Below are positions 440-34,852 of a stretch of 34,852 bases of DNA, in pieces. Location of the stretch: the NCBI GenBank assembly GCA_043778225.1, contig JAYWGM010000030.1, positions 1 to 34,852 on the forward strand, written 5' to 3'. The notes beneath the pieces were generated by a model. That model was not told the DNA's origin and ran no database searches. It saw only the letters and a list, made by a program, of their open reading frames with translations. The DNA comes from Deinococcales bacterium (GTDB lineage: Bacteria; Deinococcota; Deinococci; Deinococcales; JAAFIG01). A program made the translations under genes and the position numbers. Positions within the stretch are counted from its first letter, which is position 1. The number at the start of each line of letters is the position of its first letter.

Positions 440-2640
440 TTTTCACCCCTTGTTGGTTTGAATGCCAGTAAACGCAGCGCATTGGCGGTCACAATTGCAG
501 TCGCGCCAGTATCCGCCAAAATTGCCATCCAGAGTGTGGTGTATCCAAATAAGGTTGTGACCAAAAAAATCGCTTTTAAGCCCAGTGCAAAACCAATGTT
601 TTGCCGAATGTTGCCCATCACGGCTCGAGAAAGTTGCACCAAATCCACCACCCCCGTCAGGTTAGAGCGCAAAATGGCAGCATCGGCTGTCTCGAGCGCC
701 ACGTCTGTGCCAGAACCCATGGCAATCCCGACATCGGCTTTGGCAAGGGCTGGGGCATCGTTGATGCCATCGCCAACAAAAGCAATTTTATGGTTCGTGG
801 CGTACTGGGTCATTAACTCGAGTTTGTCTTCGGGCATCAGTTCGGCTTTGACTTCTAAGCCAAGTCCATCGGCAATGGCTTGTCCTGTGCGGGCATTATC
901 GCCAGTCAGCATGATGCTCAGTATACCCATGGCTTTAAGTTGTAGCATGGCTTGTTTGGCATCGGGACGTGGCTCGTCACGGATGGCAATAATACCCAGG
1001 GCAACACTACCCTCGAGTAAGACCACCACGGTTTTACCTGAATTCTCGAGTGCCATAATTTGAGTTTGTAAGCCAGTCTCGAGCGGTGCAAGTTCTGAGG
1101 CGTACTTTGGGCTACCAACAGCAAAAACACGGTTATCCACTGTAGCAATAGCAGCTTTACCCTGAATGGCTCGAGCCTCGGTGCTGGTTGGAGCAGCAAT
1201 CCCCTGAGCTTTGGTGTGTTCTAAAATGGCTTTGGCAAGCGGATGCGAACTGCTTTGTTCCACACCTGCCGCAAGGCGCAGCATTTCGGATTGCTCGAGT
1301 CCAAAAGTAAAAACATCGATCACAACTGGTTTACCTGCTGTTAGCGTGCCTGTTTTATCAAAAGCAATCATCGTGACGCTACCAACATTCTCGAGCGCAG
1401 CCCCGCCTTTAATCAGTAAGCCACGCCGAGCGCCACTCGAGAGTCCAGAAGTAATCGCGGCTGGCACAGACAGCACCAAAGCACACGGGCAGCCAATCAG
1501 CAGTAAGCTCACACCTTTGTAAATCCATTCGTTCCAAGTTCCAGCCCCAAATAGTGGCGGTAAAATGGCGACCAAGCTCGAGACCAACAACACCGCAGGA
1601 GTCCACATTTGGCTAAACCGGTCTATAAACCGTGCGGTGTTGCCTTTGCCATCTTGGGCTTCCTCGACCAGTTTAATAATTCTAGCTATCGTATTGTCAG
1701 AAGCTGCTTTGGTCACACGGACTTTAAGGGCGGAGTCGCCATTGATGCTACCCGCAAAAACCGAATCGCCAACTTGTTTATTGACCGGCATACTCTCGCC
1801 GGTCACAGGAGAATCGTCTAAGCTCGAGAAACCCGTTTCGATAATCCCATCGCATGGCACTCGAGAACCGGGTTGAACCAGCACCAACTGCCCAACTTTT
1901 AATCGTTCGGCTGGAATCTCATCGGTGTGTTCTGCCGCATGAGCGCCTTGTCCACCGCTATGAATCAGCAAAGCTGTTTTAGGCGTTAATGCCGCCAGTG
2001 CTTTAATTCCCGCCCGTGCGCGACCCGCCGAGATGCCCTCGAGCCATTCGCCAATCATAAAGAAAAACACGACCACCGCCGCTTCTGGGGCTTCGCCAAT
2101 GCCAATTGCACCAATTGCCGCCACACTAACAAGGGTTTCTATCGTAAACGGATTACCGAAACGTGTCGCAGCCCACGCCCGACGTGCCAAGGGAATTGCA
2201 CCAACCACAGTGGCAGCAATGTAGCCATAAACTGCAAGGTCCGAAGCAAGACTGCCAAAGAGCCATGCCGCCAGCAGCAAACCACCTGTTAAAAAAACCA
2301 GTTTAGAAGCTCGAGTGGCATACCAAGCCGTATTTTCTTCGGGAGCATGGACATGACCAGCCGCATTATGGTCTTGAGCATCATGCGCGAGTTCAACATC
2401 CACTTTTAAGGTTGACGGATAGCCAAGGGCTTTAAGGTTTGCCTCGAGCTTGCTGCGTGGTGTTAATTTTTCGTCCAGCACCACGCGCAAAGTTTCGGTG
2501 GTGAAATTGACTTTGGCGTGGCTTGCACCGGGAGTTTTCTCGAGCAGATTCTCGATTTTCTTAGCGCAATTGGCACAATCCATGCCAACAACATGGTACT
2601 CGAGTTCGGGGGTTTTTATATTATCTGAATGAATGTTCAT
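436..2640 (-). CDS. cadA: heavy-metal translocating P1B-2 ATPase (Zn/Cd/Pb, CadA/ZntA type)
   Basis: HMA motif GMDCANC, His-rich linker, TGES, CPC, DKTGT, HP, GDGINDAPAL, Lys in TM7 (LGLKAIF) and Asp-Thr-Gly in TM8 (LADTG). Start placed at ATG 2640 (MNIHSD) because the longer ORF start overlaps the divergent repressor gene. Confidence 0.95.
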   Translation of the reverse strand: MNIHSDNIKTPELEYHVVGMDCANCAKKIENLLEKTPGASHAKVNFTTETLRVVLDEKLTPRSKLEANLKALGYPSTLKVDVELAHDAQDHNAAGHVHAPEENTAWYATRASKLVFLTGGLLLAAWLFGSLASDLAVYGYIAATVVGAIPLARRAWAATRFGNPFTIETLVSVAAIGAIGIGEAPEAAVVVFFFMIGEWLEGISAGRARAGIKALAALTPKTALLIHSGGQGAHAAEHTDEIPAERLKVGQLVLVQPGSRVPCDGIIETGFSSLDDSPVTGESMPVNKQVGDSVFAGSINGDSALKVRVTKAASDNTIARIIKLVEEAQDGKGNTARFIDRFSQMWTPAVLLVSSLVAILPPLFGAGTWNEWIYKGVSLLLIGCPCALVLSVPAAITSGLSSGARRGLLIKGGAALENVGSVTMIAFDKTGTLTAGKPVVIDVFTFGLEQSEMLRLAAGVEQSSSHPLAKAILEHTKAQGIAAPTSTEARAIQGKAAIATVDNRVFAVGSPKYASELAPLETGLQTQIMALENSGKTVVVLLEGSVALGIIAIRDEPRPDAKQAMLQLKAMGILSIMLTGDNARTGQAIADGLGLEVKAELMPEDKLELMTQYATNHKIAFVGDGINDAPALAKADVGIAMGSGTDVALETADAAILRSNLTGVVDLVQLSRAVMGNIRQNIGFALGLKAIFLVTTLFGYTTLWMAILADTGATAIVTANALRLLAFKPTRGEK

Positions 2641-2643
2641 ATG
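2620..2643. promoter_or_regulatory. SmtB/ZiaR-type operator (imperfect inverted repeat) overlapping the ATPase start codon
   Basis: The minus strand reads ATATGAACATTCATTCAGATAAT, a TGAA-N6-TTCA core closely resembling SmtB operators. It lies next to an SmtB-like repressor gene, with a -10-like TATGCT at 2658-2653. Confidence 0.8.
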
Positions 2644-2722
2644 TTTTAGGTTAGCATAGATTTTGACTGCCAACCACAATTGCAAATTGTTTCTCAATAA
2701 GCACTTACGGTAGACTAAGCTC

Positions 2723-3079
2723 GTGCCAAGCCCAATCGAAAGCTGTGAAATTCGCCAAATTAACCCCCAAGCCGTGGCTCGAGCCAGCGCCGCCATGCCA
2801 GCTTTGGCAACGCTTCAAAAAGCAGTCGAAATTCTCAATGCTGGAGCGGATTTAACCCGTTTACGTATCCTGATGGGCTTGATGGTTGGCGAACTGTGTG
2901 TTTGCGATTTAGCCGCCTTGACAGAGGTGAGCGAAAGTGCGGTCAGCCATCAGTTGCGCGACCTCAAAGATGCCAAGTTGGTCAGCAGCGAGCGGCGCGG
3001 GCGAATGGTGTATTATCGTCTCGACGATAATCATGTACGGCGTATCCTCGAGAATGCCATAGACCATGCACTAGAATAG
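2723..3079 (+). CDS. ArsR/SmtB-family metal-sensing repressor (alpha3N plus alpha5 sites)
   Basis: ELCVCDLA and SAVSHQL HTH, an N-terminal Cys, and alpha5 motif DxHx10Hx2E (DNHVRRILENAIDHALE). The GTG start is 6 nt after TAGACT (2711-2716), consistent with a leaderless mRNA. Confidence 0.93.
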   Translation: MPSPIESCEIRQINPQAVARASAAMPALATLQKAVEILNAGADLTRLRILMGLMVGELCVCDLAALTEVSESAVSHQLRDLKDAKLVSSERRGRMVYYRLDDNHVRRILENAIDHALE

Positions 3080-3081
3080 CC

Positions 3082-3279
3082 ATGGCTTTCTCGAGTAAAC
3101 TGGGGCTTATGTGGGTCAGTACCCTTATTCTTTCGATTTTATTGCTGCTTGACCTGATGGTTATTTTTATTGTCGGGGCGGCTGTAACGCAGGGTCGGGC
3201 TTTTGACTGGAATACTTTTTTTGTAACGCTGATTATTAATTTTCTTGGGGCGTACTTGTGGCGCAAAAGCCGCGAATGA
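3082..3279 (+). CDS. small membrane protein (2 predicted TM helices)
   Basis: 65-aa hydrophobic ORF, 2 nt after the repressor stop, whose stop overlaps the next ATG (ATGA). Confidence 0.7.
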   Translation: MAFSSKLGLMWVSTLILSILLLLDLMVIFIVGAAVTQGRAFDWNTFFVTLIINFLGAYLWRKSRE

Positions 3280-4181
3280 TAAAAGCGTACTCGAGCAGCC
3301 ATTACACAATGCCCTTACCAATCGGGCATAAATTTCCGATGCACAAGTATGCGGCTGTGCGTTTTTTACTCGAGCAGGCTGGCTTAGCGGTTCTCGAGCC
3401 ACCGCGAGCGCCGTGGGAATTGGTCGAGCGAGTCCATGACCCTGTGTATTTGCGACAGTTGCGTTTTGGGACACTGCCGAGTAAAGCCATTCGCCTGCTT
3501 GGTTTTCCATGGTCAGAAATGCTGGTCGAGCGGGCATTGCGTGCCACTGGCGGGACATTATCGGCTGCCCAAGATGCGCTCAAACATGGGTTAGGCATTA
3601 ACTTGGCTGGCGGAACACACCATGCGTTTCCCGACCACGGCGAGGGCTTTTGTGTGTTGAATGATGTCGCCATTTGCACCTTGGCGTTGCTCGAGACTGG
3701 CATAACGCGAATTTTTATTTTGGATTTGGATGTTCACCAAGGCAATGGCACGGCTTTTATTTTTAGACACGAGCCTCGAGTTTTTACGCTCTCGGTGCAT
3801 GGTGAGCGCAATTACCCGTTTCATAAAGAAAGCTCGAGCCTCGATATTGCTTTGCCCGATGGCACAGACGACTTTGGCTTTTCGGCGGTTCTCGAGCAGC
3901 GTGTTCTGCCCGCACTGCTGGCGTTTAAGCCGCAATTGGTTTTTTACTTGGCGGGTGTGGATGTGCTGGCTCGAGACCAATTTGGGCGTTTTGGATTATC
4001 GCTTGAGGGTGCAAAAGCCCGCGATGCTCAAGTTTTTAAGGCTTGCCGCACGGCTGCTATTCCAGTCGTCAGCTTGATGGCTGGCGGTTACAACAAAGAC
4101 CCCAACTTAACGGTTCAAGCCCACACCAATACAGTTCTGGCAGCCCTTGATGTTTTTGACGTTATCCACAGGCTGGCTTAA
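3276..4181 (+). CDS. histone deacetylase-family protein (class IV-like / AcuC-type Zn deacylase)
   Basis: HKFPM, NLAGGTHHA, GFCVLND, DLDVHQGNGT, AGVD..D and GGY motifs. Start at ATG 3276 is coupled to the previous stop. Confidence 0.92.
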   Translation: MIKAYSSSHYTMPLPIGHKFPMHKYAAVRFLLEQAGLAVLEPPRAPWELVERVHDPVYLRQLRFGTLPSKAIRLLGFPWSEMLVERALRATGGTLSAAQDALKHGLGINLAGGTHHAFPDHGEGFCVLNDVAICTLALLETGITRIFILDLDVHQGNGTAFIFRHEPRVFTLSVHGERNYPFHKESSSLDIALPDGTDDFGFSAVLEQRVLPALLAFKPQLVFYLAGVDVLARDQFGRFGLSLEGAKARDAQVFKACRTAAIPVVSLMAGGYNKDPNLTVQAHTNTVLAALDVFDVIHRLA

Positions 4182-4321
4182 CCTGTGGATAACTCGAGAT
4201 GGTGCGGACTGAGTGGCTAAGAAAACAGTCAGAGAAGCCGTCAAAAACAGCCTATAGCCATGTTCAACATTTATGTCATGGGCTTGTCAATCCCCAGCCT
4301 TATCCACAGGCTTGTGGATAA
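4162..4321. promoter_or_regulatory. cluster of four perfect DnaA boxes in two inverted pairs
   Basis: TTATCCACA at 4162-4170 and 4300-4308; TGTGGATAA at 4184-4192 and 4313-4321. Confidence 0.8.
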
Positions 4322-4369
4322 CTTTGAGGGCTTTCGCTTTTGGACTGCGGCGCGTTAAACTCGGGTTTC

Positions 4370-7300
4370 ATGGATTACCATTTGCACTTGGTTGGGGCTT
4401 GCGTTCTCGAGCGCGATGCTGTCCCCGTGCCATTGGGTAAACGTTCCAATGCGCTGCTTGCCTATTTGGCACTCGAGGGCGTGACGGCTCGAGGCACAAT
4501 TGCCACGCTTTTATGGAACGAAACCGACGAAGAGCGGGCGCGTGCCAGTTTGCGCCAAGAGGTTTATCGCATGAACCAACTTGGCGAAATCATTCTTAAC
4601 GACCGCCACCATGTCTGGCTTGCGCCCAATGTCCAGCACGACCTCGAGCAGTTTAATCAACGCGAGGGCGAATTTGCGGCAGGCTTAACGCTCGATGAAC
4701 TCGAGTTTGAAGCGTGGCTTGATGGCGCCCGGGCTTTACTGCGCGATAAACGCAGTGCTTTTTTAGAATCCGAAGTGCGGCGTTTAAGTCTGGCACGGCA
4801 ATGGCGCGAAGCGATGTTGGTGGCACGACAGGCTTTGGCGCTTGACCGCTTTGCCGAAAACCTGCACCGCGATTATATTCGTTTGGCATACCTTGCCGAT
4901 GACCGTATGGCGGTTCGCACCGCCATCCTCGAGTTGCGGCGGGTGCTGCGCGAAGAACTCTCTACCTTTCCCGAACCCGAAACCAGCCACTTAATCCAAG
5001 CCATCGAAGAAGGGCGTTTACCCAAACCCGATGCACCACAAAATCGGCGCATCCCGATGACCGTCTTGCGCCCACCAAAACTGGCTGGCTCGAGGGCATG
5101 GCAAGCCTTGGTTGGTGGTGTGACTCGTGGCAAAGCGATGTTTGTTTCGGGCGAATTGGGCAGTGGGAAAACACGCTTGTTATCCGAATTGGCGGCTTCA
5201 CGCAGCGCCCTTGGAGCAAAAGTTCTCGAGTTGCGCTGCCGTGAAACCGAAAGTACGATTCCTTTTGCCGCCCTGATTCAAGCCGTGCGCGATCATGTGA
5301 TGCTCGAGAAACACCTTGGGCAACGCTCGAATTTTCCCGAATTGTGGCGTGGCGAATTGGCGCGGCTGATTCCAGAATTGCGCGACCAAGATGTGGTTTA
5401 CCGCTCGATTGAACAAAGCAGCGAATTTGGCGATGCTCGAGCCAGAGTTTTAGAATCTTTTACCCAATATGCCCTTTCGATTGCTGCCCCAAATGGAATG
5501 CTGATGCTCGACGATTTGCACTGGGCAGACCCCGCCACGCTCGAGTGGCTGAGCTACGCGATACCGCGCTTATTGCCTTTTGGGGTGGCGGTGCTGGCGG
5601 CGTTCCAGAACTTAGAAGCTGGCGCAGCCTTGCGCGATTTAATTTCAAAACTCGAGGCTGGAGGATTAGCCAACCACCTTGACCTCGAGCCATTTGGATT
5701 GCCAGAAATCGAAGAATTGCTGGGCGGCATAGACCGCCGCGCCACCCCACTGGCTTCTGAGTTGTTGCGTGTCACCGGTGGTAACCCACTTTTTATGGTC
5801 GAAACCTTAAAGCACCTGCTCGAGACTGGGCAACTCGATGAACAATGGCAATTGCAGGGTATCCTCGAACCGCCAGAGCGAATCGGGGCGCTGTTGCGGC
5901 GGCGTTTGGAGCGCCTCAGTCCACTATCGCGGCGGGTCTTGAGCATGATTGCACTGCTGGACTCGAGCGACAGTGCCTTGGTCGCCAACACCCTCCGAGC
6001 CGACGAACTCGAGGTTGCCCAAGCGATTGCCGAAGCCCAACTCAGCCATATGTTGCGCGAGGATGGCGCGTTTTCGCACGATGCCCTGCGCCGTACTGCG
6101 CTTGAGTTTTTACCCGAAGCGGTACAACGGGCGCTGCACCGTCGGGCTGCCCAGATTTTAGAAAGCCAAAATGCCGATACCAACCGCATTGCTGGTCATT
6201 ATATTCGTGCCAGCGATGCCCGTTCGGCTGCGCCCCACCTGATTCGGGCAGCCGAATTAGCGCTTGAACAACTCGAGCCAAGCCGAGCGTTGAGTTTACT
6301 CGAGGGTTTAGACAAACAGCATCTTGAAGCCAACCTCGAGACCCGTTGGCGGATTGCCCATGCCGAGGCGCTGTTGGCAGTCAAACGCTACCTCGAAGCC
6401 GAAACCGAAGCTCGAGCCGCCTTAATTTTGGCAAAACGTCAGGGGGATGTGCTGTTGCTGCACCGCGCCAGTTTGGTGCTTTCAGAAGCCTATTTATTGC
6501 AAGGGCAGGTGCTTGAAGTTCGCACAATGCTCGAGCCTTTGCTGCCAAGTTTGGGCTTTGACCATCGACTGAGGGCGCATGGCTTACTCGGTTGGGCAGA
6601 AATCATTCTTGGCGATAGCCCACGGGCGGTCAAAGCCTTTGACCAAACCCTGCCGTGGGGTCCAGAGGCTCAACTGGGGCGGGCATTAACGGCGTGGTAC
6701 ACTGGAAAAACCCGCGATTCGTTACACGCTGCTCAGGTTGCCCTCGAGAACAGCCCTGACGGTTTTAAGCGGGTTCAGAGCAGCCTTGTTTTAGGGGTAG
6801 CACTCTGGACTCGAGGACAATTCAGCGATGCCCTACTAACCTTAAATACCGCCCTTGAGCATCCCGAAGCCTTGGTGCAGCAGTGCCATACAGCCTTGTT
6901 GGCACGTGCGCCAATTTATTTGTCCAGAGGACAATTTGACCATGCCCTCAAAGATATCCAAGCTGTGTTGAACGACCCACAACCGTATCAAATCAACAGC
7001 CAAATTGCCGATGCCGAGAATCAACTTGGGCTTTTGTATGGCTTGTGCGGCAACCTCGAAGCCAGCCTGAGCTATTTTTCGGACAGCATCCGCCGTTGCC
7101 AAACCAACAACGACGCTTCGGTTTTGATACCACGTGGGCTGAGAACCGCAATTTTGGCACTGCACCGCGACCCGCGCCACAGCGAGGCTGCCAAAGAAGT
7201 GCTGCCCTACCTCGAGTCTTCGCCTCACGCCTTGGGGCGTTGCTATGCAGTGCTTGGGTTAGCCGAAAGTGCCTTGGCGGCTAACAATCTGCCCCAAACC

Positions 7301-7594: not shown

Positions 7595-7607
7595 TAACCT
7601 AAGTGCT

Positions 7608-8492: not shown

Positions 8493-8538
8493 CATATCGA
8501 ATCATCTATCGGTTTGATTTGCCCTTTGGACTCTCATG

Positions 8539-8556
8539 AAAATTGTGTACAATTTT
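8539..8556. promoter_or_regulatory. perfect 8-2-8 palindrome overlapping a -10 element (TACAAT)
   Basis: AAAATTGT-GT-ACAATTTT, with TACAAT at 8548-8553, upstream of the gene at 8604. Confidence 0.45.
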
Positions 8557-8603
8557 TTCTTGCACCCTCGAGAGACCTCGAGTGGATATTTTTTAGGAGA
8601 ACT

Positions 8604-9569
8604 ATGCCACGCAAAAAGAAAGAAATTGAAGAAGTGACCGAAGAAAGTTTAATTCCAGACGAAACCGATTTGGATGAAGATACACTTTCCATGAGCCAAA
8701 CTGATGATTTGTCCATGACTGAGGACGAAGACAGCGACGAGGATTACGAATTGGCAACCGAAGCCGACCTCGAAGGCTTAGACGAAGAAGCGGTCAGTGG
8801 AATCGAATTACAACTTGGTATTTTAACCGCTCGAATCGAAGAACTGACCACAATTGTGCGTAAACTCGAGAAAAAACTCGAGAAAGCTGCCATTGGCGAT
8901 AGCCCAGCCCCAGTCAAGCGCGAGGGTGGTTTTGGACGCGAAGGCGGCGGTTTTGGTGGCGGAAATCGTGATGGCGGAGGCTTTAAGCCCCGCGAAGGTG
9001 GCTTCAAGCCCCGTGAAGGCGGTAGCAGTTTCCGTCCTCGAGAAGGCGGCAGCAGCTTTGGTGGGGGAAGCCGTGATGGTGGCAGTTTCCGTCCACGTGA
9101 AGGTGGCGGCAGCCGTGACGGTGGATTCCGTCCCCGTGACGATTCACGTCCTCCGCGTGAAGGTGGCTTTAAGCCCCGCGAAGGTGGTAGCAGCTTCGGT
9201 GGCGGTAGCCGCGATGGTGGTTTCAAACCACGCGAAGGTGGATTCCGTCCCCGTGATGATTCACGCCCTCCACGCGAAGGTGGCGGTTTTAGCAGCGCTC
9301 CTCGAGAAGGCGGATTCCGTCCGCGTGACGGTGGCAGCAGCGCCCCTCGAGAAGGTGGCTTTAGACCCCGCGACGGCAGTAGCAGCGCCCCACGTGAAGG
9401 CGGCGGTTTTGGACGCGGTTTCGGCGGCAGCAGCGCTCCGCGTGAAGGTGGCTTCAGACCGCGTGACGATTCGCGCCCAGCCCGTGATGATTCCCGAGGC
9501 TCGAGCAGCCCAAGTGGTTTTGGTGGCAAACGCCGCGACCACGGGTTTTCTAAGCGCCGCGAAGATTAA
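8604..9569 (+). CDS. low-complexity protein: acidic N-terminus, short coiled coil, long F(R/K)PR(E/D)GG repeat tail
   Basis: RBS AGGAG at 8595-8599 before ATG 8604 (MPRKKKE). The repeats vary at synonymous positions, and a terminator follows the stop. Confidence 0.8.
   Translation: MPRKKKEIEEVTEESLIPDETDLDEDTLSMSQTDDLSMTEDEDSDEDYELATEADLEGLDEEAVSGIELQLGILTARIEELTTIVRKLEKKLEKAAIGDSPAPVKREGGFGREGGGFGGGNRDGGGFKPREGGFKPREGGSSFRPREGGSSFGGGSRDGGSFRPREGGGSRDGGFRPRDDSRPPREGGFKPREGGSSFGGGSRDGGFKPREGGFRPRDDSRPPREGGGFSSAPREGGFRPRDGGSSAPREGGFRPRDGSSSAPREGGGFGRGFGGSSAPREGGFRPRDDSRPARDDSRGSSSPSGFGGKRRDHGFSKRRED
8920..9500 (+). repeat. coding degenerate tandem repeats (PREGG / FRPRDDSRP units)
   Basis: Recurrent CG(C/T/A)GAAGG(T/C)GG(C/A/T) units and a duplicated GGATTCCGTCCCCGTGA(C/T)GATTCACG block. 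Confidence 0.85.
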
Positions 9570-9585
9570 ACAGCTTTGTTTTGTC

Positions 9586-9613
9586 AATCCCATCTCTCGA
9601 GGTGGGATTTTTT
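9586..9613 (+). terminator. intrinsic terminator
   Basis: AATCCCATC-TCTCGA-GGTGGGATT hairpin followed by a T-run, 16 nt after the stop at 9569. Confidence 0.8.
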
Positions 9614-9696
9614 GTTGAGTGCTTTACACAACCTACTCATCTTGGTGTATCATCCTATGCTGCGGCTCGAGGAGGTCGCTGAACGTATTCACCACA

Positions 9697-9890
9697 GGGA
9701 AGCGCAAGGTCTCGAGGACGCATCGGTCAAACGATTTCTCACTCGAGAACACGAGGTAGACGTTATCGAAAAGCAGTGAATTAAATCACTGAAATCTGCG
9801 GATGCGTCTCGGCTGCACACCCCAGCCGCCCGAACCAAGAAGCACTTAGAAAATGCGTCGTGAGACGAACACAAACTAAGGTGCAGGGAA
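9697..9890 (+). ncRNA. glmS ribozyme (glucosamine-6-phosphate-activated self-cleaving riboswitch), variant
   Basis: Cleavage motif A|GCGC (A9701/G9702). P1 is TCTCGAG 9710-9716 with CTCGAGA 9742-9748. Conserved ACGAGG, TTATCGAA and GCGGATG segments are present. P2 AGACGT/GCGTCT; P3 CGGCTG/CAGCCG; P4 GCACTTAG/CTAAG-GTGC; P4.1 CGTC-GTGA-GACG (GNRA loop). Directly upstream of glmS. Confidence 0.92.
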
Positions 9891-9941
9891 AAAATCCAGA
9901 CTCGAGAATTGCTCGAGTTGACGTATTTGTGAGGTTTTTTG

Positions 9942-11762
9942 ATGTGTGGAATTGTTGGTTATATTGGAACGCGGAACGCTACCCAAGTGCTGCTTTCAGG
10001 TCTTTCTAAACTTGAGTACCGTGGCTATGACTCTTCGGGTGTGGCAGTCCACGATGGTACAAATTTGGTGGTGCGAAAAAACGCTGGCAAACTGGCGGTG
10101 CTGCAAGGAGAACTCGAGCAGCAAAACTTAATCGGTACGCTCGGCATCGGGCATACACGCTGGGCAACCCATGGTAAGCCAAACGATGTCAACGCTCATC
10201 CGCACGCTTCCGAAGATGGGCAGATTGTGATTATCCACAATGGAATTATCGAAAATTATCTGCCCCTAAAAGAAGGCTTGATGGTTCGCGGTCATGTTTT
10301 TAAGTCCGAAACGGATTCCGAAGTTTTGGCGCATTTAATCGAGGAAAAATACACGGGTAATCTCGAGGAAGCTGTACGGGCTGCCTTATCCGAGGTTCGC
10401 GGCGCGTATGGAATTGTTGTGACTCACAAAAATCACCGTGAAATTGTGGCTGCCAGAACCGTTTCGCCACTGGTCATGGGTGTGGGAATAGGGGAGATGT
10501 TTTTGGCTTCCGATGTTCCAGCCCTGCTCTCTTACACTCGAGAAGTTGTTTTTCTGCACGATGGTGACATGGTGGTGTTGACCGACTCGAGTTACCGCAT
10601 CATGGACTTGGCTGGCAAGGCTGTGGCTCGAGATGTGACCCACATTGACTGGGATGCCGAAGCTGCCGAAAAAGGTGGTTTTGACACCTATATGCTTAAA
10701 GAAATCTATGAGCAGCCGCAAGCGCTCTCGAACACACTTTTGGGGCGTTTGCACGACGAGACTGGCGAGGTTAATTTAGAACTGAACCTTGACCCAGCCA
10801 GTTTTAAGCGAATATCTATCATTGCTTGTGGTACTGCCTTTTATGCTGGTTTGGTCGGCGAGTATTTGATCGAACAATTGGCTCGAGTTCCGGTCGAAAT
10901 AGATGTTGCTTCTGAGTACCGCTATCGTCAGCCGTTGGTTTCTGAAAATACCTTAGCGATTGTTATCTCGCAAAGTGGCGAAACCATAGATACCCTTGAA
11001 GCCTTGCGTGAAGCCAAGAAAAGCGGCGCAAAAACCCTTGGAATTATCAATGCCAAAGGCAGCAGCATGACTCGAGAAGTAGACGATACGCTCTACATTC
11101 ATGCTGGACCAGAAATTGGTGTGGCAAGCACCAAGGCATACACCAGCATGGTCAGTGCAATGCTGATGCTGGCATTGTGGCTTGGACGCGCTCGAGGCAC
11201 ACTGGATGCCGTCAAAGGCGCAGAACTGATTCGCAGCGCTCGAGAACTGCCGCGCTTGGTCGAAGAAGCCCTGTCCGAAACTCGAGTTGCCAACATCAAA
11301 CGGGTGGCAGAAAAATACAAAGATGCTCGAGACTATTTATTTTTGGGGCGTGGCGTGAACAGCCCAACGGCTTATGAGGGCGCACTAAAACTTAAAGAGA
11401 TTAGTTATATTCATGCCGAAGCCTATGCTGCTGGCGAAATGAAACATGGACCGATTGCCTTGATAGACGAAAACCTGCCCGTCGTGGTAATTGCCACCGA
11501 CAGCGTGCTGCTCGAGAAGACCATCTCAAACATCCAAGAAGTCCGCGCTCGAGGTGGTCGGGTTATTGCCGTGGTGAGTGATGGTGATACCGAAGCCAGC
11601 CGTCATGCCGATGACATTATTATTGTGCCAAAAAGCCATGAGATGGTCTCGCCGGTGGTCAATGCTGTAGCCATGCAGCTTTTGGCGTACTTTACAGCCA
11701 CAGCCCTAGGTAAGGACGTGGATAAACCACGCAACTTAGCTAAATCCGTGACGGTGGAGTAA
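9942..11762 (+). CDS. glmS: glutamine--fructose-6-phosphate transaminase (isomerizing)
   Basis: N-terminal MCGIVG, LEYRGYDS, GHTRWATHG, HNGIIEN, SQSGET, ASTKA, EMKHGP and C-terminal PRNLAKSVTVE. RBS GAGG at 9931. Confidence 0.98.
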   Translation: MCGIVGYIGTRNATQVLLSGLSKLEYRGYDSSGVAVHDGTNLVVRKNAGKLAVLQGELEQQNLIGTLGIGHTRWATHGKPNDVNAHPHASEDGQIVIIHNGIIENYLPLKEGLMVRGHVFKSETDSEVLAHLIEEKYTGNLEEAVRAALSEVRGAYGIVVTHKNHREIVAARTVSPLVMGVGIGEMFLASDVPALLSYTREVVFLHDGDMVVLTDSSYRIMDLAGKAVARDVTHIDWDAEAAEKGGFDTYMLKEIYEQPQALSNTLLGRLHDETGEVNLELNLDPASFKRISIIACGTAFYAGLVGEYLIEQLARVPVEIDVASEYRYRQPLVSENTLAIVISQSGETIDTLEALREAKKSGAKTLGIINAKGSSMTREVDDTLYIHAGPEIGVASTKAYTSMVSAMLMLALWLGRARGTLDAVKGAELIRSARELPRLVEEALSETRVANIKRVAEKYKDARDYLFLGRGVNSPTAYEGALKLKEISYIHAEAYAAGEMKHGPIALIDENLPVVVIATDSVLLEKTISNIQEVRARGGRVIAVVSDGDTEASRHADDIIIVPKSHEMVSPVVNAVAMQLLAYFTATALGKDVDKPRNLAKSVTVE

Positions 11763-11764
11763 CC

Positions 11765-12538: not shown

Positions 12539-12540
12539 GG

Positions 12541-17519: not shown

Positions 17520-17579
17520 TGATTTCGATCGAACTTGTCAATACAAAAGCAATTATGATTACTGTTACAAATGTTTTTT

Positions 17580-17605
17580 GTAGGGGCGAACCTTGTGTTC
17601 GCCCT
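17580..17605 (+). repeat. GTAG-type REP-like palindrome
   Basis: GTAG-GGGCGAAC-CTTGT-GTTCGCCC in the SBP-permease intergenic region. Confidence 0.65.
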
Positions 17606-17662
17606 GCTTTGAAATTGGTACGTGAGTTCCCTCGTCAAACGCTTGACTACTTTAGGTGATTG

Positions 17663-22464: not shown

Positions 22465-22471
22465 ATAACGC

Positions 22472-24939: not shown

Positions 24940-24942
24940 TGG

Positions 24943-25062: not shown

Positions 25063-25072
25063 GGGATTATTT

Positions 25073-26041: not shown

Positions 26042-26147
26042 GGCAGCATGATAATAAGAAATTTATCAGCTAACTGTCAGGAACACCAAAAAATCATGTC
26101 ATGAAAAGCTGACAATTGCGCGTCATAATGTTTTATGGAGGTCATCG

Positions 26148-27212: not shown

Positions 27213-27225
27213 AAGGAGAATTACC

Positions 27226-28419
27226 ATGGAATTATCACCACCAGAAACCTTAACCGCCCCAGAAGCCGTTCAGCCCGTTGCGCTCGAGAAAGCCGGTGGG
27301 ATGGTCAAACTTAAACCGGCGCAATTAACCGAACTCGAAGACCGAGCCGATGATTTTGTCGAAGATGTCTTAAAACTCGATGTCCAATCCGATGATTTTA
27401 AGGCGCGAATGGTGGCGATTAACGACCTTGGCAACGCCGAAGCTCGCCAAGCTGCCAGTGTTTCTAACCGCATGATGGATAGACCACTGGCTGCCAGTAA
27501 GGGCTTGCAGGATGGCAATACCCCTGTTTCAAAATCCTTAACTGAGTTGCGTCGAACTGTCGAAGACCTCGACCCAAGTAAGCAAGGTGATATGTTTGCA
27601 CCAAAAAAACTGTTTGGCTTAATTCCATTTGGTGATAAATTACGCGATTACTTCATGCGTTACGAAAGCGCTCAGGGGAATCTCAATAAAATCCTCGAGA
27701 GTCTGTACCGTGGGCAAGACGAACTCCGTAAAGATAACGCCAGCATTGAACAAGAAAAAGTCAATTTGTGGGCAGCCATGCAAGCCTTACAAGGGTACAT
27801 TTATGTTGGGCAGCAAATAGACCTTAAACTCGAGTCTCGAGTGACTGCATTACAAACTTCAGACCCCGAAAAAGCTCGGGTTGTACGTGACGAAATGCTC
27901 TTTTATACCCGTCAGAAAGTTCAGGATTTGTTGGTACAACTCGCGGTTAGCATTCAGGGTTACTTGGCACTGGATTTGGTGCGTAAAAATAATTTGGAAC
28001 TGATCAAAGGCTGTGACCGTGCCAGTACAACCACCGTTACGGCGCTGCGGACAGCCGTGATGGTCGCGCAAGCCCTTGCCAATCAAAAATTGGTACTTGA
28101 CCAGATTAACGCCCTCAACGCCACGACCAGTAATTTAATTGAAGCCACCTCTAAAATGCTGCTCGGGCAATCGGACGCTATCGCCAAGCAAAGCGTCAAT
28201 ACCAGCATTGGCATTGACAGCTTAAAAGCCGCTTTTGATAACATTTACCAATCCATGGATAACATGAGTAATTACAAAGCGGCGGCGCTCGAGAGCATGC
28301 AGCAAACCGTGGGGATACTTGCCGAAGAAGTTGGAAAATCCAAACAATACTTGGATCGCGCTCAAGCTCAGGTGCTGACTTCCGAAGTTAAATCGCTTGG
28401 CGAAGGATACAAAATCTAA
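27226..28419 (+). CDS. telA: toxic anion resistance protein (TelA/KlaA/YaaN family)
   Basis: RBS AAGGAG, a helical protein with L..LR..VEDLDP, KKLFGLIPF, ELRKDN, NNLEL and ALANQK. Confidence 0.85.
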   Translation: MELSPPETLTAPEAVQPVALEKAGGMVKLKPAQLTELEDRADDFVEDVLKLDVQSDDFKARMVAINDLGNAEARQAASVSNRMMDRPLAASKGLQDGNTPVSKSLTELRRTVEDLDPSKQGDMFAPKKLFGLIPFGDKLRDYFMRYESAQGNLNKILESLYRGQDELRKDNASIEQEKVNLWAAMQALQGYIYVGQQIDLKLESRVTALQTSDPEKARVVRDEMLFYTRQKVQDLLVQLAVSIQGYLALDLVRKNNLELIKGCDRASTTTVTALRTAVMVAQALANQKLVLDQINALNATTSNLIEATSKMLLGQSDAIAKQSVNTSIGIDSLKAAFDNIYQSMDNMSNYKAAALESMQQTVGILAEEVGKSKQYLDRAQAQVLTSEVKSLGEGYKI

Positions 28420-29909: not shown

Positions 29910-30520
29910 TGCGCGGATTTTGGTTGTACATTTACTCGGAACGCAATCTGTATGGCTGCTTATTTGCACTGGCTGGCTTAGCACTGTACTTTGCTGGAAT
30001 TATTAAAGACTACTGGTATTTAATCGTGCCGGGCTTGTATTTGGTCGGAATGATGCTCAACCCGCCCAGCCGTGCTGACCTTGAATTAAAAAACAACTTA
30101 CAAGACACAGAAATTAAAAATGCTCTCGAGCAAATGATTGGTAAAGCCAAGCGACGCTTGCCCCCAGAAGCTGTGGCACACTGCGAACGCATCAAAACAC
30201 TGGTGGTCGAAATGCTACCCCGAATTCGCACCGCCCAAGGCACACAAGATGCCTTTGCAATCAAACAAGCCGCACTGGATTATCTGCCGCACACGCTCGA
30301 GAATTACTTGGCGTTACCGCCCGCTTATGCCAATATCCACCCGATAAAAGACGGCAAAACCGCCAAAGTTATTTTGCTCGAGCAACTAACCCTTCTCGAG
30401 CAGAGTGTCCAAGAAGCCAGCAGCAATGTCCTCCAAGGTGATGCCCAGAAAATGCTGGTCAATAGCCGTTTTTTAGAAGATAAATTCGCTAAACCCGAAG
30501 AATTTTTCAAGACCAATTAA
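29909..30520 (+). CDS. two-TM plus helical-domain protein (possibly XpaC-like partner of TelA)
   Basis: Start overlaps the previous stop. Two N-terminal hydrophobic segments, DYLP.TLENY..LP and FLEDKF. Confidence 0.75.
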   Translation: MRGFWLYIYSERNLYGCLFALAGLALYFAGIIKDYWYLIVPGLYLVGMMLNPPSRADLELKNNLQDTEIKNALEQMIGKAKRRLPPEAVAHCERIKTLVVEMLPRIRTAQGTQDAFAIKQAALDYLPHTLENYLALPPAYANIHPIKDGKTAKVILLEQLTLLEQSVQEASSNVLQGDAQKMLVNSRFLEDKFAKPEEFFKTN

Positions 30521-30581
30521 ACCATTTGTCAGGCTTTTGTGACATACACTGCACTGACCTAAGCTGACTAGATTGACACTT

Positions 30582-31466
30582 GTGAATACGTCCGCCAATC
30601 TGCAAAGGCTTGTCTCGGCACTGCCGTATCTACTTCCAGCCCTGCTTATTTTTGGTTTTTTTACTTATTTCCCATTGGCTCGAGTGATTTACATGAGCTT
30701 CACCGATGCAGATTTCCTGAAACCCGTGCCAAATTGGGTCGGGCTGCAAAATTACAGCACGATGTTTGCCTCCCGCGAATTTTGGGGTAGCCTTGGCATC
30801 ACCACGATTTTTGCGCTCGGTGTGACCTTTCTCGAGGTCGGGCTGGGCATGGCGTTGGGCTTTTTAATGAACGCCAAAACTCGAGTCACCCCGCTTTTAC
30901 GGGCGGCTGTTTTTGCGCCAGTCGTGATTTCGATTTCGGCAACTGCAATTACATGGATGTTCTTTTTGAATACCCAAGGCGGACCGGTCAATCAGGCGTT
31001 AGCGGTGGTCGGGATTCCGCCAATCGGTTGGTTTACCGATCCAAAAATTGCGCTGCTGGGCGTGATTATCGTGGCGGTCTGGAAAGGTATCGGGCTACCC
31101 GCCGTGCTGTACTTGGCTGGCTTGCAAGGCATTTCTAAAGAACTCGAGGAAGCGGCAATTGTCGATGGCGCGAACCGCTGGCAGGTCGCTAGCCGCATTA
31201 CGATTCCACTTTTAGCACCAACAACGATGGTGGTCTTTTTTATCAGCCTGGTTGGCACGTTTCAAAGCTACAGCTTGGTGCTGCTTTTAACCAGGGGCGG
31301 ACCGGTTGGTTCGACCAGTTTACTAGGCTATTACATTTACGAAAATGCCTTTCAGTTTTTCCAGATGGGTTATGCCAGTGCTTTGTCGGTGGCGTTGTTT
31401 GTGCTGCTTGGCATATTGGCATTTTTACAATTTAAGGTCTCCGAAAGGCGGGTGCATTACCAATGA
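30582..31466 (+). CDS. carbohydrate ABC permease (UgpA/MalF-like)
   Basis: YLLPAL, VGLQNY, EAA loop (LEEAAIVDGA), TRGGP and YENAF. GTG 30582 lies 7 nt after TAGATT; TTG 30573 is the alternative start. Confidence 0.9.
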   Translation: MNTSANLQRLVSALPYLLPALLIFGFFTYFPLARVIYMSFTDADFLKPVPNWVGLQNYSTMFASREFWGSLGITTIFALGVTFLEVGLGMALGFLMNAKTRVTPLLRAAVFAPVVISISATAITWMFFLNTQGGPVNQALAVVGIPPIGWFTDPKIALLGVIIVAVWKGIGLPAVLYLAGLQGISKELEEAAIVDGANRWQVASRITIPLLAPTTMVVFFISLVGTFQSYSLVLLLTRGGPVGSTSLLGYYIYENAFQFFQMGYASALSVALFVLLGILAFLQFKVSERRVHYQ

Positions 31467-32335
31467 CCGCTGCCGACCGTTTTCGTCAACGCCATCAGAC
31501 ACAGCCAAATTTAAGTAAACGGCTGGCGGCTCGAGTCGAATTAGCGCAAGGGATTATCAGCTTTCTGGTCGCCCTGATTTTTCTTGTGCCGCTTTTATTT
31601 ATGCTTTTGGGGGCGTTCAAAGAACAACGCGAAATTTTTACGGGTGCGTTTATTCCCGAGCAGTGGGTCTGGCAAAATTTTCTCGAGGCGTGGAATGGTG
31701 CGCCATTTGCACGGTACTTTTTTAATTCGCTGCTGGTTTCGGTTATTGTGACAGTCAGTGTGGTGCTGACCTCGAGCTTAGCGGCGTTTGCTTTTGCGCG
31801 GATGAAATTTTATGGGCAGGCGGCTTTATTTTTATTTGTGATCGGACCACTGATGATTCCGGGTGATGTGCTGTTAATCCCTAACTTTATTACGATTCGC
31901 CAATTTGGCTGGCAGAACAGCTACCCAGCTTTAATCGTGCCGTTTTTAGCCAGTGCGTTTGGGATTTTTTTACTGCGCCAAGCCTACTTAAAAACCCCGC
32001 AAGAACTCGAGGATGCCAGCCGCATAGACGGGGCAACCCCATTGCAATTTTTATTTCGGATTCTCATGCCAGTCAATGCGCCATCCTTATCGGCACTGGC
32101 GGTGCTGACCTTTTTGGGCATTTGGAATGCGCTGGTTTGGCCATATATTGCTATTTCCAAAGACGAGTACCGCACCGTGCAAGTTGGCTTAGCCAGTTTT
32201 ATCAACCTCGAGGGCAGCAACGTTCCAGTCGTGCTGGCAGCCACAACCTTAGTTATTTTACCTGTGATGATTGTCTACATTTTTGCACAGAAGTGGTTTA
32301 TTGAAAGTGCGGCTTCAAGCGGCTTAAAGGGCTGA
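31463..32335 (+). CDS. carbohydrate ABC permease (UgpE/MalG-like)
   Basis: YFFNS, FGIFLLRQ, EAA-like loop (LEDASRIDGA), WNALVWP and GLKG end. Confidence 0.9.
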   Translation: MTAADRFRQRHQTQPNLSKRLAARVELAQGIISFLVALIFLVPLLFMLLGAFKEQREIFTGAFIPEQWVWQNFLEAWNGAPFARYFFNSLLVSVIVTVSVVLTSSLAAFAFARMKFYGQAALFLFVIGPLMIPGDVLLIPNFITIRQFGWQNSYPALIVPFLASAFGIFLLRQAYLKTPQELEDASRIDGATPLQFLFRILMPVNAPSLSALAVLTFLGIWNALVWPYIAISKDEYRTVQVGLASFINLEGSNVPVVLAATTLVILPVMIVYIFAQKWFIESAASSGLKG

Positions 32336-32389
32336 AATCTTATTTCGGTGTGTTCTGGCTCGAGGTGACTTGGGTGCAGGGGGTCTGGT

Positions 32390-33622
32390 ATGAAAAAACG
32401 TTTTGTGGCAATGGCAGCAGCATTTGGCGCTGGCGCGGTACTGCTCGGTGGGGCGCTCGGACAAGCTAAGCGCACCGAAGTGACTTTTTTGTATGGCTTA
32501 GGCGGCGAACTTGGCAAAGCCATCGAAGTGATGATTAAAGGCTTTAACGAATCGCAAAGCGATATTACGGTCAAAGGCGAATTTAGTGGACGCGACTACG
32601 AAGCCGTGGTACAAAAAGCCTTGGCGGGTATTGCGGCTGGTGCGCCAGCCGCTGATATTTTGCAACTCGAGGTTTCGTACTGGCCTCGTTTGGCGGCGGC
32701 TGGAGCGCTTGAGGAACTTTCTAAGTTTGACGGCTTTAAGCCAACCTTTGATACCTTCTGGCCCGTCTTTAAGCGCCAAGCCGACCCCGATGGCAACGGC
32801 AAAGTCTTTGCTATGCCGTGGAATAACTCCAACCCAGTCACGTATTACAACCCAGAATTATTGGCTAAATCTGGCGTTAAAGAATCCGACCTTCGCACCT
32901 ACACTGGTCTGCGCGAAGCGGCTAAAAAAATCAAAGCCGCCACTGGTTTGCCAGCCGTTGCCATCGAGAGTTTCCCGTGGGTACTCGAGGGTGCTATTGC
33001 CAGCAACAACGGCGAAATTGTCAAGAACAACCGCCTGAATATGGACAGCAAAGAAGCCATACAGGTAATCGAAAACTGGGCGGGCTTCTTCCGTGACGGT
33101 ACCGCGATTGTCAGCAACGCCAACAGCAACCTCGATTTTTGTGCTGGAAAATTCGCGATTCGTTTTTCATCGGTCGCCAGCCGCCCAAATATCAAAGCCA
33201 ACTGCAAATTTGCCTTTAAGGTTGCGCCATTGCCATACTTCAAAAAGCCGGCTGTGCCTGTAGGCGGCGCGACTCTGGCAATCTCAAAAGTTGCTCCAGA
33301 AAAACAAAAAGCCGCTTGGCAGTTTATCAAATGGTTAGCCCAACCCGAGCAGCAATTCACCTTTATCAAGATGAGCAACTATGTACCGATTACCCGTCCA
33401 ACTTCTGACCTCAAAGCCTTCAAAAATTATATCACTTCTGAACAAGGGCTGGACATGGGTGTGCGCCAATTGCCTTACGCCCGTCCACGCCCAAGCATCG
33501 GTGCATACTTCCAAGTCACCACTGAAACCATCAAGAGCCTCGAGAACATCTACCTCAACAACGCCCCAGTCGAAGTTACGCTCAAAGATTTGGTTAGCCG
33601 CACTGCGCCACTCTTTAAGTAA
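32390..33622 (+). CDS. ABC substrate-binding protein (UgpB-like, CUT1)
   Basis: Signal peptide, FNESQ, AMPWNNSNP..YYN, GGATL, AAWQFIKWL and YVP. Confidence 0.88.
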   Translation: MKKRFVAMAAAFGAGAVLLGGALGQAKRTEVTFLYGLGGELGKAIEVMIKGFNESQSDITVKGEFSGRDYEAVVQKALAGIAAGAPAADILQLEVSYWPRLAAAGALEELSKFDGFKPTFDTFWPVFKRQADPDGNGKVFAMPWNNSNPVTYYNPELLAKSGVKESDLRTYTGLREAAKKIKAATGLPAVAIESFPWVLEGAIASNNGEIVKNNRLNMDSKEAIQVIENWAGFFRDGTAIVSNANSNLDFCAGKFAIRFSSVASRPNIKANCKFAFKVAPLPYFKKPAVPVGGATLAISKVAPEKQKAAWQFIKWLAQPEQQFTFIKMSNYVPITRPTSDLKAFKNYITSEQGLDMGVRQLPYARPRPSIGAYFQVTTETIKSLENIYLNNAPVEVTLKDLVSRTAPLFK

Positions 33623-33630
33623 GGAGACCC

Positions 33631-34464
33631 ATGAACCCACTTATTTTAGGCGCAGCCCTACCGATTTCGGCACTCGAGACCAACCGCGACTGGTTGCACC
33701 AACACGGCGGGCGCGACCTCGAAATTCAAGACCCATGTGTGCCAGCCATGCTCGAGTCCGATTGGAAACCCTTGCTCGAGACGCTCAAAAATAACCTCGA
33801 GGGACACGGCGGACGAGTTGGCATTCACGCCCCGTTCGATGGCTACCAAATTGGTTCTTACGACCCGTTTGTGGGGCAGTTTGTCGCAACCCGAATGCTC
33901 AAAAGCCTCGAGTTTGTGGCAGCCGTTGGCGAAACCCTTGGTGTACGTGCGCCGCATATGGTCTTGCACAGTCCGTTTCTGTTCTTTGGGCATCCGTTGG
34001 TGGCGCACACCGAAGCCACCGATTTACGCCGTCAGATTGGTTTTATCCAGCGCACCCTCGAGCCAGTCTTGAAAAAAGCCACTGAACTTGGTTGTACCTT
34101 GGTGATTGAAAACATCCGCGACACCAACCCCTACGCCTTGCTCGAGACGGTAAAATCTTTTGATTCTGAATTTGTTCGCATGAGTTTAGATGCGGGTCAT
34201 GCTAACCTGATGCACCACTGCGGCGGACCCAAAGCTGACCAATGGGTACGCCAAGCTGGGGCGCTTTTGGGTCATGTGCATTTACAAGACAACGACGGAA
34301 TGCTCGACCACCATTGGCATCCGGGGCAAGGCGATATGAACTGGTGGGCAATCTGCATGGAACTCTCGAAGCTCGAGCATAAGCCGCGTTTGATTCTCGA
34401 GTTGCGCGACCACAATGTTCAAAAATCCGCCAAATGGTTTAACGACCACGAACTAGCACAATAA
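33631..34464 (+). CDS. sugar phosphate isomerase/epimerase-family TIM-barrel metalloenzyme
   Basis: RBS AAGGAG; GIHAPF, VLHSP, IEN, LDAGHA, HVHLQDNDG..DHH..PGQG and LE metal ligands. Confidence 0.85.
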   Translation: MNPLILGAALPISALETNRDWLHQHGGRDLEIQDPCVPAMLESDWKPLLETLKNNLEGHGGRVGIHAPFDGYQIGSYDPFVGQFVATRMLKSLEFVAAVGETLGVRAPHMVLHSPFLFFGHPLVAHTEATDLRRQIGFIQRTLEPVLKKATELGCTLVIENIRDTNPYALLETVKSFDSEFVRMSLDAGHANLMHHCGGPKADQWVRQAGALLGHVHLQDNDGMLDHHWHPGQGDMNWWAICMELSKLEHKPRLILELRDHNVQKSAKWFNDHELAQ

Positions 34465-34477
34465 CCTGTCCTAAACC

Positions 34478-34540
34478 GTAGGGGCGGGCGACCCTGCCCG
34501 TGAGGTGCGTGTATTGGGTCAAGACAGGCTTGCCTCGCCC
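34478..34540 (+). repeat. degenerate GTAG-type REP-like hairpin
   Basis: GTAGGGGCGGGCGACCCTG...CAGGCTTGCCTCGCCC; shares the GTAGGGGCG start with the element at 17580. Confidence 0.5.
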
Positions 34541-34558
34541 AAAACCCCAAGGAGTCCC

Positions 34559-34852
34559 ATGAAAAAAATAATCGTTGGTTTATATTGTGGTTGACTTAGG
34601 CGACCGTATCAACGACCTTAACTCCGCCACTGATGCAATGATTCAACAAGCTCTGCAAGCCATTTTTGCCAGTGTCGCAGCACCTCGAGTTCATTTATTG
34701 GGCAATCATGATGTGGTGAACCTGTCGGATGCTGAAAATGCTGCCTTACTACTGAGTACACTGTTAAATAAATTCGTAGAATTTTTGCGAGCTATGCGAG
34801 TGAACACAAAGTACATTGTTGACGAGTGCGGAGACTCTTTGGAGCGAAGCGG
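34559..34852 (+). pseudogene. frameshifted calcineurin-like metallophosphoesterase
   Basis: RBS AAGGAG with ATG 34559 gives MKKIIVGLYCG*. The +1 frame reads IVVDLGDRIND...LLGNHD (motifs II and III), and motif I (DxH) is absent. Confidence 0.7.

Follow-up and report, generated by a model that had tools for sequence, protein, structure and literature searches.

To our knowledge, HIP1, the highly iterated palindrome (HIP) of cyanobacteria, has gone for three decades without an explanation and is known from one phylum only. Among other words that mark genomes, the uptake signal sequences (USS) of Pasteurellaceae and the DNA uptake sequences (DUS) of Neisseria are short, occur genome-wide, lie in genes in several reading frames and affect the proteins encoded; we know of no uptake bias in Deinococcota. 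Very-short-patch (VSP) repair, in which Vsr acts with Dcm, is a repair bias that raises the frequency of the Dcm methylase site in E. coli; it concerns one type of T:G mismatch and produces small enrichments. In the portions of the HIP literature on which we draw, HIP1 (GCGATCGC) and alternate HIPs are described as short palindromes of extreme abundance across the genome, present in non-coding DNA and in every reading frame at a level that codon use does not explain (Elhai 2015, PMC4390886; Xu et al. 2018, PMC5861425). The hexamer CTCGAG behaves alike in the DNA analysed here, the 34,852-nucleotide contig JAYWGM010000030.1 of a Deinococcales bacterium (assembly GCA_043778225.1), hereafter the window, and we class it with the HIPs. 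The host genome (G000), of which the window is contig 30, is a metagenome-assembled genome (MAG) of 4.03 Mb in 107 contigs (119 kb at most), with 48.7% GC and 89% completeness; no 16S rRNA was found in this MAG. Among sequencing runs, the window turned up in just two samples, both of them its likely source. The GlmS protein of G000 falls in Deinococcales, and its best named match is that of a MAG labelled 'Deinococcales bacterium' (L001, 93% identity).

By exact count the window contains 215 copies of CTCGAG, the number estimated by eye, in total and block by block, in a first-pass annotation of this DNA. The expectation from 100 dinucleotide-preserving shuffles is 4.27 ± 2.02 with a maximum of 10, and none of the 100 attained the observed count. 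The simple expectation at 50% GC is ~8.5, and the over-representation of about 25-fold claimed in the annotation is recovered at order 0 and reaches 50-fold under the dinucleotide null. Sites occur on both strands and in all three codon phases, as had also been stated: the open reading frames (ORFs) of the + strand hold 87, 33 and 27 sites in phases 0, 1 and 2, and those of the - strand 30, 15 and 12. Window ORFs carry 205 sites, against 19.4 ± 4.5 (maximum 34) in 200 synonymous-codon shuffles, and 11 sites fall in none of the 29 listed ORFs (those at 4193, 9596, 9901, 9912 and 32359 among them).

The likeness to HIP1 holds at the scale of the genome. G000 has 24,877 CTCGAG sites (6.17 per kb, or about one per 160 bases), 26.7 times the order-0 expectation; at six bases per site, 3.7% of all bases lie within the word. 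It is the most frequent hexamer, three times as abundant as the next one, and the ten next hexamers with more than 5,000 copies all overlap CTCGAG or are A/T runs. The flanking positions carry at most 0.033 bits, which marks CTCGAG as a bare hexamer rather than a piece of some longer dispersed repeat. ORFs have 6.16 sites per kb and the remaining DNA 6.17. All 107 contigs carry the word, at 4.0-10.6 per kb, and gaps between sites are near-exponential (mean 160.6, coefficient of variation 0.998). Few of the 1,449 5-kb segments have eight sites or fewer, and those are low-GC islands. One such island, on contig 44 between 57.5 and 65 kb, has 33% GC and 0-3 sites per 5 kb, and was probably acquired recently; lesser islands lie on contigs 34, 41 and 93.

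Mechanical ORF calling in G000, which took the longest non-overlapping frames of 120 aa or more, gave 3,280 ORFs spanning 3.52 Mb. They contain 21,701 sites, against ~2,290 in synonymous shuffles within genes and ~1,015 in codon-order shuffles (five of each). Their distribution over the three phases (12,808, 4,361 and 4,491) is not the confinement to one phase that the first-pass annotation had named as grounds for abandoning its view. A dicodon-preserving shuffle, also suggested there, retains phase-0 sites by construction and is therefore an invalid null; the synonymous, codon-order and off-motif-codon-usage nulls were used instead. In the last of these, codon usage outside the motif supplied the expected occupancy, which is 2.0-2.5% for each of the three kinds of context. 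The observed occupancy is 69% for Leu-Glu (12,819 of 18,581; odds ratio 99), 56.5% for [S/P/T/A]-Arg-[V/A/D/E/G] (4,375 of 7,750; odds ratio 50) and 41.9% for x-Ser-[S/R] (4,507 of 10,767; odds ratio 36). With the counts in window ORFs, these results bear out the earlier contention that codon or amino-acid preference is insufficient. Outside Leu-Glu pairs, Leu is encoded by CTC in 9% of cases and Glu by GAG in 23%.

The proteome is affected. Leu-Glu is the most over-represented dipeptide of G000, with 18,581 occurrences against 7,982 expected (observed/expected, O/E, 2.33), a surplus of some 10,000, while Glu-Leu stands at 0.97. Across genomes the Leu-Glu O/E climbs with motif density, some of the samples being small: it is 2.75 in G253, 2.33 in G000, 2.23 in L001 and 1.95 in G196 (G253 and G196 being motif-rich genomes outside the family, described below), 1.41-1.49 in Meiothermus and Trueperaceae loci and 0.84-1.25 in motif-poor genomes.

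The comparison of orthologues that had been proposed was carried out with five genomes of the same genus and L001, which have 73-79% DNA identity to G000 over five genes. Sites are kept in position more often (52-79%) than other hexamers (28%): in pooled comparisons, 150 of 236 phase-0 sites, 65 of 125 phase-1 sites and 49 of 62 phase-2 sites are retained, and relative by relative the kept fraction is 0.55-0.69 for CTCGAG and 0.20-0.38 for control hexamers. At conserved residues, codons are kept more often inside the motif than outside it (CTC 77% against 27%, GAG 75% against 41%, CGA 68% against 30%, TCG 83% against 59%). Where a Leu-Glu pair is conserved, the relative has the motif in 74% of cases if G000 has it and in 33% if not, so that positional memory exceeds convergent codon choice. 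When a site has been lost on a single branch, at least two bases have changed in 11 of 17 cases, compared with 24% of 836 control windows; this fits nucleotides that are held against the background preference and relax once the word is broken. Only one single-branch gain satisfied the strict definition used, too small a number to draw on. In glmS, where G000 has CTCGAG at 13 positions, the word is missing from every one of them that aligns in the motif-poor L006 and L002 and in the Meiothermus and Trueperaceae orthologues, and sites arose through double synonymous recoding (GCC-CGC-G to GCT-CGA-G) or through replacement of Leu-Asp or Leu-Tyr by Leu-Glu.

The words that differ from CTCGAG by one base are informative about the force involved. 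All nine classes of one-mismatch neighbour are 18-172 times rarer than CTCGAG. The three transition classes are the commonest (O/E 1.17-1.40, CTTGAG/CTCAAG being highest at 1.40), and among non-motif Leu-Glu dicodons CTTGAG and CTCGAA have 4.8 and 2.5 times their background share. Enrichment of transition neighbours is the opposite of what a deamination-repair drive of the VSP type predicts, and the spectrum fits transition-biased decay of an abundant word against a restoring force at all six positions. Leu-Glu dicodons whose Leu codon ends in G are scarce (CTGGAA 0.17, TTGGAA 0.24 and CTGGAG 0.33 times background). Taken together, a DNA-level force targets the hexamer itself in every context, overrides codon preference, alters proteins and is old within the family.

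The window encodes ordinary housekeeping and transport functions. Its main features are the following (CTCGAG, being palindromic, has no strand).

624-34689, no strand: all 215 CTCGAG sites, 6.2 per kb, with 79, 54, 55 and 27 per successive 10-kb block; the last site is at 34684-34689.
4193-4198, no strand: single intergenic CTCGAG between a deacetylase-family gene and an AAA/TPR gene.
8567-8582, no strand: CTCGAG pair with a 4-nt loop forming a 6-bp hairpin followed by a T run, 75 nt past the arginase stop codon.
9596-9601, no strand: intergenic CTCGAG in a 370-nt spacer, with three others at 9666, 9711 and 9742.
9901-9917, no strand: CTCGAG pair upstream of glmS, in the spacer; the loop is 5 nt, the stem 7 bp if a flanking A/T pair is included, and T-rich sequence follows.
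9939-11762, + strand: glmS, with 13 CTCGAG sites in a highly conserved gene, mostly in phase 1 (Ala/Thr-Arg-Gxx).
27829-27841, no strand: CTCGAG pair with a start-to-start distance of 7 nt, the sole short spacing over-represented genome-wide.
32359-32364, no strand: intergenic CTCGAG between an ABC permease gene and a solute-binding-protein gene.

The intergenic position given in the first-pass annotation is correct for 4193, 9596, 9901/9912 and 32359. The pair at 8567/8577, listed there with the others, falls inside a long TTG-start ORF (8514-9569) without a Pfam match, the 5' part of which is probably non-coding. From its structure, this pair likely has a secondary role as a terminator stem. 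Genome-wide, pairs with loops of 3-8 nt are 2.4 times denser outside ORFs than inside, and 32 of 85 non-coding pairs adjoin T runs, the pair at 8567-8582 among them, which looks like a secondary use as hairpin stems. Very short gaps between sites are depleted, with the exception of the 7-nt excess (123 cases, against 30-53 for spacings of 8-11 nt). Close neighbours also reduce use of the word: CTCGAG encodes 0.28 of the Leu-Glu pairs within 10 nt of another site and 0.46 of those at 10-20 nt, and its use is flat at 0.77-0.79 when the nearest other site is 75-300 nt away. A hairpin of a different kind, REP-like, with an 8-bp GC-rich stem and a 5-nt loop and without CTCGAG, lies at 17578-17611 of the window in the spacer that precedes a permease gene. 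The exact stem occurs in 10 copies in G000, which also has 196 half-stems, and each of five genomes of the same genus has short matches at many places.

The first-pass annotation had allowed that related Deinococcota might already be known to share the word, and the family of G000 does share it throughout: all 18 other genomes sampled, from five genera, carry 4.3-6.8 CTCGAG per kb (computed with rounded genome sizes), and the reverse palindrome GAGCTC is almost absent from most of them. Over the phylum, surveyed in 301 genomes (no result rests on G265, the one that is unpublished), the distribution runs from hyper-enrichment to purge. Genera g13-g15 have ~1.4-3.5 CTCGAG per kb with GAGCTC far scarcer, and a second family (f2) ~0.3-2.8 per kb. 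In genus g9 (31 genomes of ~2.2 Mb) CTCGAG is about as frequent as GAGCTC, and in genus g7 (100 genomes) it is depleted, with 26-1,010 copies per genome. Strong enrichment outside the family was found in two genomes, G253 (24,536 sites in 3.5 Mb) and G196 (13,562 in 3.8 Mb), while the 2.3 Mb of G197, whose genus code is that of G253, hold 683 sites. Sequence samples give 7.75 per kb at 52% GC for G253, 0.30 at 50% GC for G197 and 3.5 at 67% GC for G196. Low GC as the cause was discarded, since G197 is motif-neutral at 50% GC and G196 motif-rich at 67%. Between the sampled loci of G253 (L208-L213) and G197 (L214-L218), both at ~50% GC, the motif differs 25-fold and the palindrome purge discussed below is 0.42 against 0.80. 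In G196 (L219-L224) the word is the octamer CCTCGAGG, present in 213 copies in 120 kb against 4.6 expected; there, 68% of sites are immediately preceded by C (-1) and 73% immediately followed by G (+1).

Site positions in glmS are common to the family, G253 and G196, one alignment column being CTCGAG in all seven family genomes and in both others, and some recur in distant Trueperaceae too. The GlmS tree does not resolve the branching of the family, G196, G197, G253 and L002/L006. With such a tree and positions recurring in Trueperaceae, a single origin followed by losses is not separable from repeated gains. A fossil excess of Leu-Glu, which a lost motif might have left in G197, was not seen, its O/E of 1.25 being equal to that of the motif-free L006.

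The enrichment coexists with a purge of other palindromes. In G000, 34 of the 64 hexamer palindromes have an O/E below 0.1 and 17 below 0.02, and the palindrome median is 0.077 against 0.815 for non-palindromes; AGGCCT, GACGTC and GGGCCC each occur once in 4 Mb, and among tetramers GGCC stands at 0.01 and GATC at 0.13. Pooled over the 63 palindromes other than CTCGAG, O/E is 0.26-0.48 in the nine further family genomes sampled, 0.42 in G253, 0.40 in L006, 0.80 in G197 and 0.82 in G196. The purge is family-wide and extends to G253 and L006, but not to G197 or G196. CTCGAG is absent from the 21.8 kb of L006, and it follows from the contrast between the family and L006 that the word is the lone exception to the purge in one lineage and part of it in a close relative. 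The idea that CTCGAG is merely the last palindrome standing was rejected, as other unpurged palindromes reach only 1.1-2.5 times expectation.

Resident phage DNA carries the word. A phage-like contig of 12.1 kb in G001 (L369, contig C242; terminase, portal, helicase, RecT) has 6.43 CTCGAG per kb, its host 5.2, and a prophage in G011 (L367-L368, contig C40; tape measure, head, portal, terminase) has 4.2-5.9 per kb, its host 6.3. Since Terminase_6N matched only two of the 19 family genomes, the prophage evidence consists of two regions. Their combined gene set comprises terminase, portal, head, tail, primase and RecT, and the G011 prophage encodes a DNA methyltransferase adjoining its terminase. 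A scan of viral contigs returned at least 127 stretches, mostly GC-rich and of unknown host, and is uninformative on the phages of this family. Among the matches listed, CTCGAG is the commonest hexamer in the IMG/VR contigs L230, L283, L241 and L271 (host unknown), at 2.0-7.7 per kb and 51-71% GC.

As to mechanism, we tentatively favour a biased repair or gene-conversion drive acting site by site. A force on the DNA word itself would make and keep CTCGAG one site at a time in every cell of the lineage: mismatch repair or gene conversion would be biased by sequence, heteroduplexes would resolve towards CTCGAG, and fixation would be biased without a fitness benefit at each site. One protein would recognise the hexamer, probably something other than a conserved canonical methyltransferase, Vsr or an XhoI-type enzyme. 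This reading is suggested by a density far above the need of a saturating signal, by motif use that does not drop with local density beyond ~75 nt, as fits a per-site process over a need for 'enough' sites, and by the heavy burden of selecting 25,000 sites individually; it also draws on the presence of the motif in resident phage DNA and its absence from low-GC, probably recently acquired, islands. Several points weigh against it. The mechanism is read from a pattern in the sequence, and our searches yielded no candidate enzyme. Selection on each site predicts positional conservation and resistance to codon preference equally well, and the orthologue counts pool five or six related genomes and are not independent. 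Mechanical ORF calling at 120 aa or more places short genes in the 'non-coding' fraction. The repulsion between sites at short range is not an obvious outcome of repair bias, and might stem from a functional signal being redundant or from hairpins being avoided. Finally HIP1, the closest analogue, has a role in natural transformation suggested by experiments, according to the parts of its literature on which we draw. A wider form of the proposal, in which a methyltransferase-independent repair or gene-conversion system writes CTCGAG into any resident DNA and recodes and alters proteins throughout the genome, and its presence or absence amid heavy restriction pressure on palindromes flips the word from ~27-fold enriched to near-eliminated in close lineages, seems to us doubtful.

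The link with transformation is the starting point of the main alternative, which we regard as possible, if on the unlikely side: CTCGAG would be a self-signal for DNA uptake (USS/DUS-like) or recombination (Chi-like), established by selection or by uptake bias with recombination. Uptake and chromosome organisation had both been named as alternatives in the first-pass annotation. In the passages on function that we draw on, HIP1 is reported to raise the efficiency of natural transformation, its authors suggest an uptake-related or Chi-like role, and its abundance correlates with type IV secretion proteins, a role as uptake sequence being hypothesised for HIP1. Imported islands without the motif agree with such a signal, and redundancy of the signal would account for repulsion at short range. 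ComEC and DprA are encoded in G000 and in the four other genomes tested, but motif-neutral G197 is one of these, and the two genes were accordingly dismissed as discriminators. Thirteen of the 18 other family genomes have AddAB-like (PDDEXK_1) genes, but these are also present in the motif-neutral genus g9 and none was found in G000 (89% complete), a patchy distribution uncorrelated with the motif. A palindrome has no orientation with respect to replication, such as a Chi-like site would show. With one site per 160 bp, a kilobase fragment already holds several and the marginal gain from another is small, yet use of the word stays at 77-79% at 75-300 nt from the next site. Known uptake sequences, moreover, are 9-12 nt long, non-palindromic and present at about one per kb. 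Site-by-site selection for chromosome structure or organisation, for instance as the binding site of a nucleoid protein, appears quite improbable. It is consistent with positional conservation, from which such a role has been argued for HIP1 (Xu et al. 2018, PMC5861425, in the part drawn on here), and with the paired copies that form hairpin stems, their excess outside ORFs and their association with T runs; on the other side stand the selective burden of ~25,000 sites that override codon preference and change amino acids, and a spacing close to random. We know of no CTCGAG-binding protein. An origin of the signal in codon usage, amino-acid composition, a mobile repeat or faulty assembly deserves next to no credence: GC-rich relatives do use CTC and GAG often and have the word mildly raised, but the shuffles, the equal density outside ORFs, the uninformative flanks, the low share of CTC and GAG off Leu-Glu pairs and the same signal in 18 other family genomes and in the separately deposited MAG L001 refute it.

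The first-pass annotation had itself proposed a drive tied to a CTCGAG methyltransferase, and this claim found no support. In the form of Elhai's methylation-dependent repair ratchet, with a methylase that differs between genomes without orthology or belongs to an unrecognised family, it now looks unlikely. Cyanobacterial HIPs at high frequency go with a cognate methyltransferase (Elhai 2015, PMC4390886, in the portion used here), and the part of a preprint on hot-spring communities that we draw on gives CTCGAG and TCGA among methylated motifs, the abundance of CTCGAG being unremarked there. Methyltransferases are plentiful: several occur in every family genome tested, and G000 has at least 18 genes of DNA methyltransferase families (five C5, one Dam-like, two N4/N6-type, three type I, two type ISP, one MmeI-like, two other type IIG-like, one smaller with an Eco57I domain, L109, and one TaqI-like, L103). 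However, a search of five Pfam classes in six family genomes (one per genus, five genera) gave no orthogroup common to more than three of them, with the proviso that family MAGs are 87-94% complete and that unrecognised methylase families are possible. G010 yielded no C5 enzyme and the single-contig G013 no PF01555 enzyme; the D12 enzymes, at 21-24% identity to that of G000, are not its orthologues, and the gamma-class enzymes of other family genera are type ISP, MmeI-like or type I. L103, which resembles TaqI/PaeR7I enzymes, was set aside as driver because it occurs in only three of 31 genomes, counting G000; its orthologue in G003 (contig C4, 28861-30789) has 68% identity and one in-frame TAA stop. 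TaqI_C does not follow motif density in the 301 genomes either, being present in 31 of 31 genomes of motif-neutral g9, four of 10 of the family and none of four of g14, and in neither G253 nor G196. Neither Vsr nor an XhoI-family endonuclease (PF04555) was found in any of the 19 family genomes, and transition neighbours are in excess rather than depleted. HIPs are characterised by a word-specific methyltransferase in every genome where the word abounds; no such enzyme was found across the family, and every enzyme test ran against the methylase-dependent ratchet, which is not supported.

A search of the full-text literature, subscription journals and supplements being outside its scope, found neither over-representation of CTCGAG nor iterated palindromes reported for Deinococcota, and a full-text term search of the two main HIP1 papers (PMC4390886, PMC5861425) found neither topic named. 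The described systems resemble the present one in part. Uptake sequences can spread by drive without a benefit at each site, and competence genes are present here; those sequences are longer, non-palindromic and rarer, however, and the competence genes tested do not separate motif-rich from motif-neutral genomes. VSP repair differs in that the family lacks detectable Vsr and that all classes of neighbour, not one, are rare, with transitions commonest. XhoI and PaeR7I recognise the same word, and its strong avoidance in genus g7 and in L006 is what a restriction target would show, whereas in the family the word is ~27-fold enriched.

The nearest parallel is with HIPs. In the accounts of them used here, they too are conserved in position above control words, scarce in recently acquired DNA and variable among related lineages, and the exact word switches between lineages, as it does to CCTCGAGG in G196. 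They differ from the present case in that HIP1 is an octamer of cyanobacteria and accompanies conserved methylases, according to the same accounts, whereas the Deinococcales word is a denser hexamer for which no conserved cognate methyltransferase was found, and in that sister lineages of the CTCGAG-rich family purge the same word. For HIP1, a periodic distribution over tens of kb has also been described (Xu et al. 2018, PMC5861425). The apparent absence of a conserved methylase separates general from cyanobacteria-specific traits of iterated palindromes. The pair G253 and G197, the octamer-using G196, the purging genus of 100 genomes and the moderately enriched genera g13-g15, in which there may be strains that can be cultivated, offer natural contrasts for finding the responsible gene, and CTCGAG is usable as a practical marker of foreign DNA in these genomes. 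The 2.3-fold over-representation of Leu-Glu shows clearly how a force at the level of DNA can rewrite a proteome. CTCGAG constitutes a second case of an iterated palindrome, in another phylum and apparently independent of HIP1, with a different and denser word.

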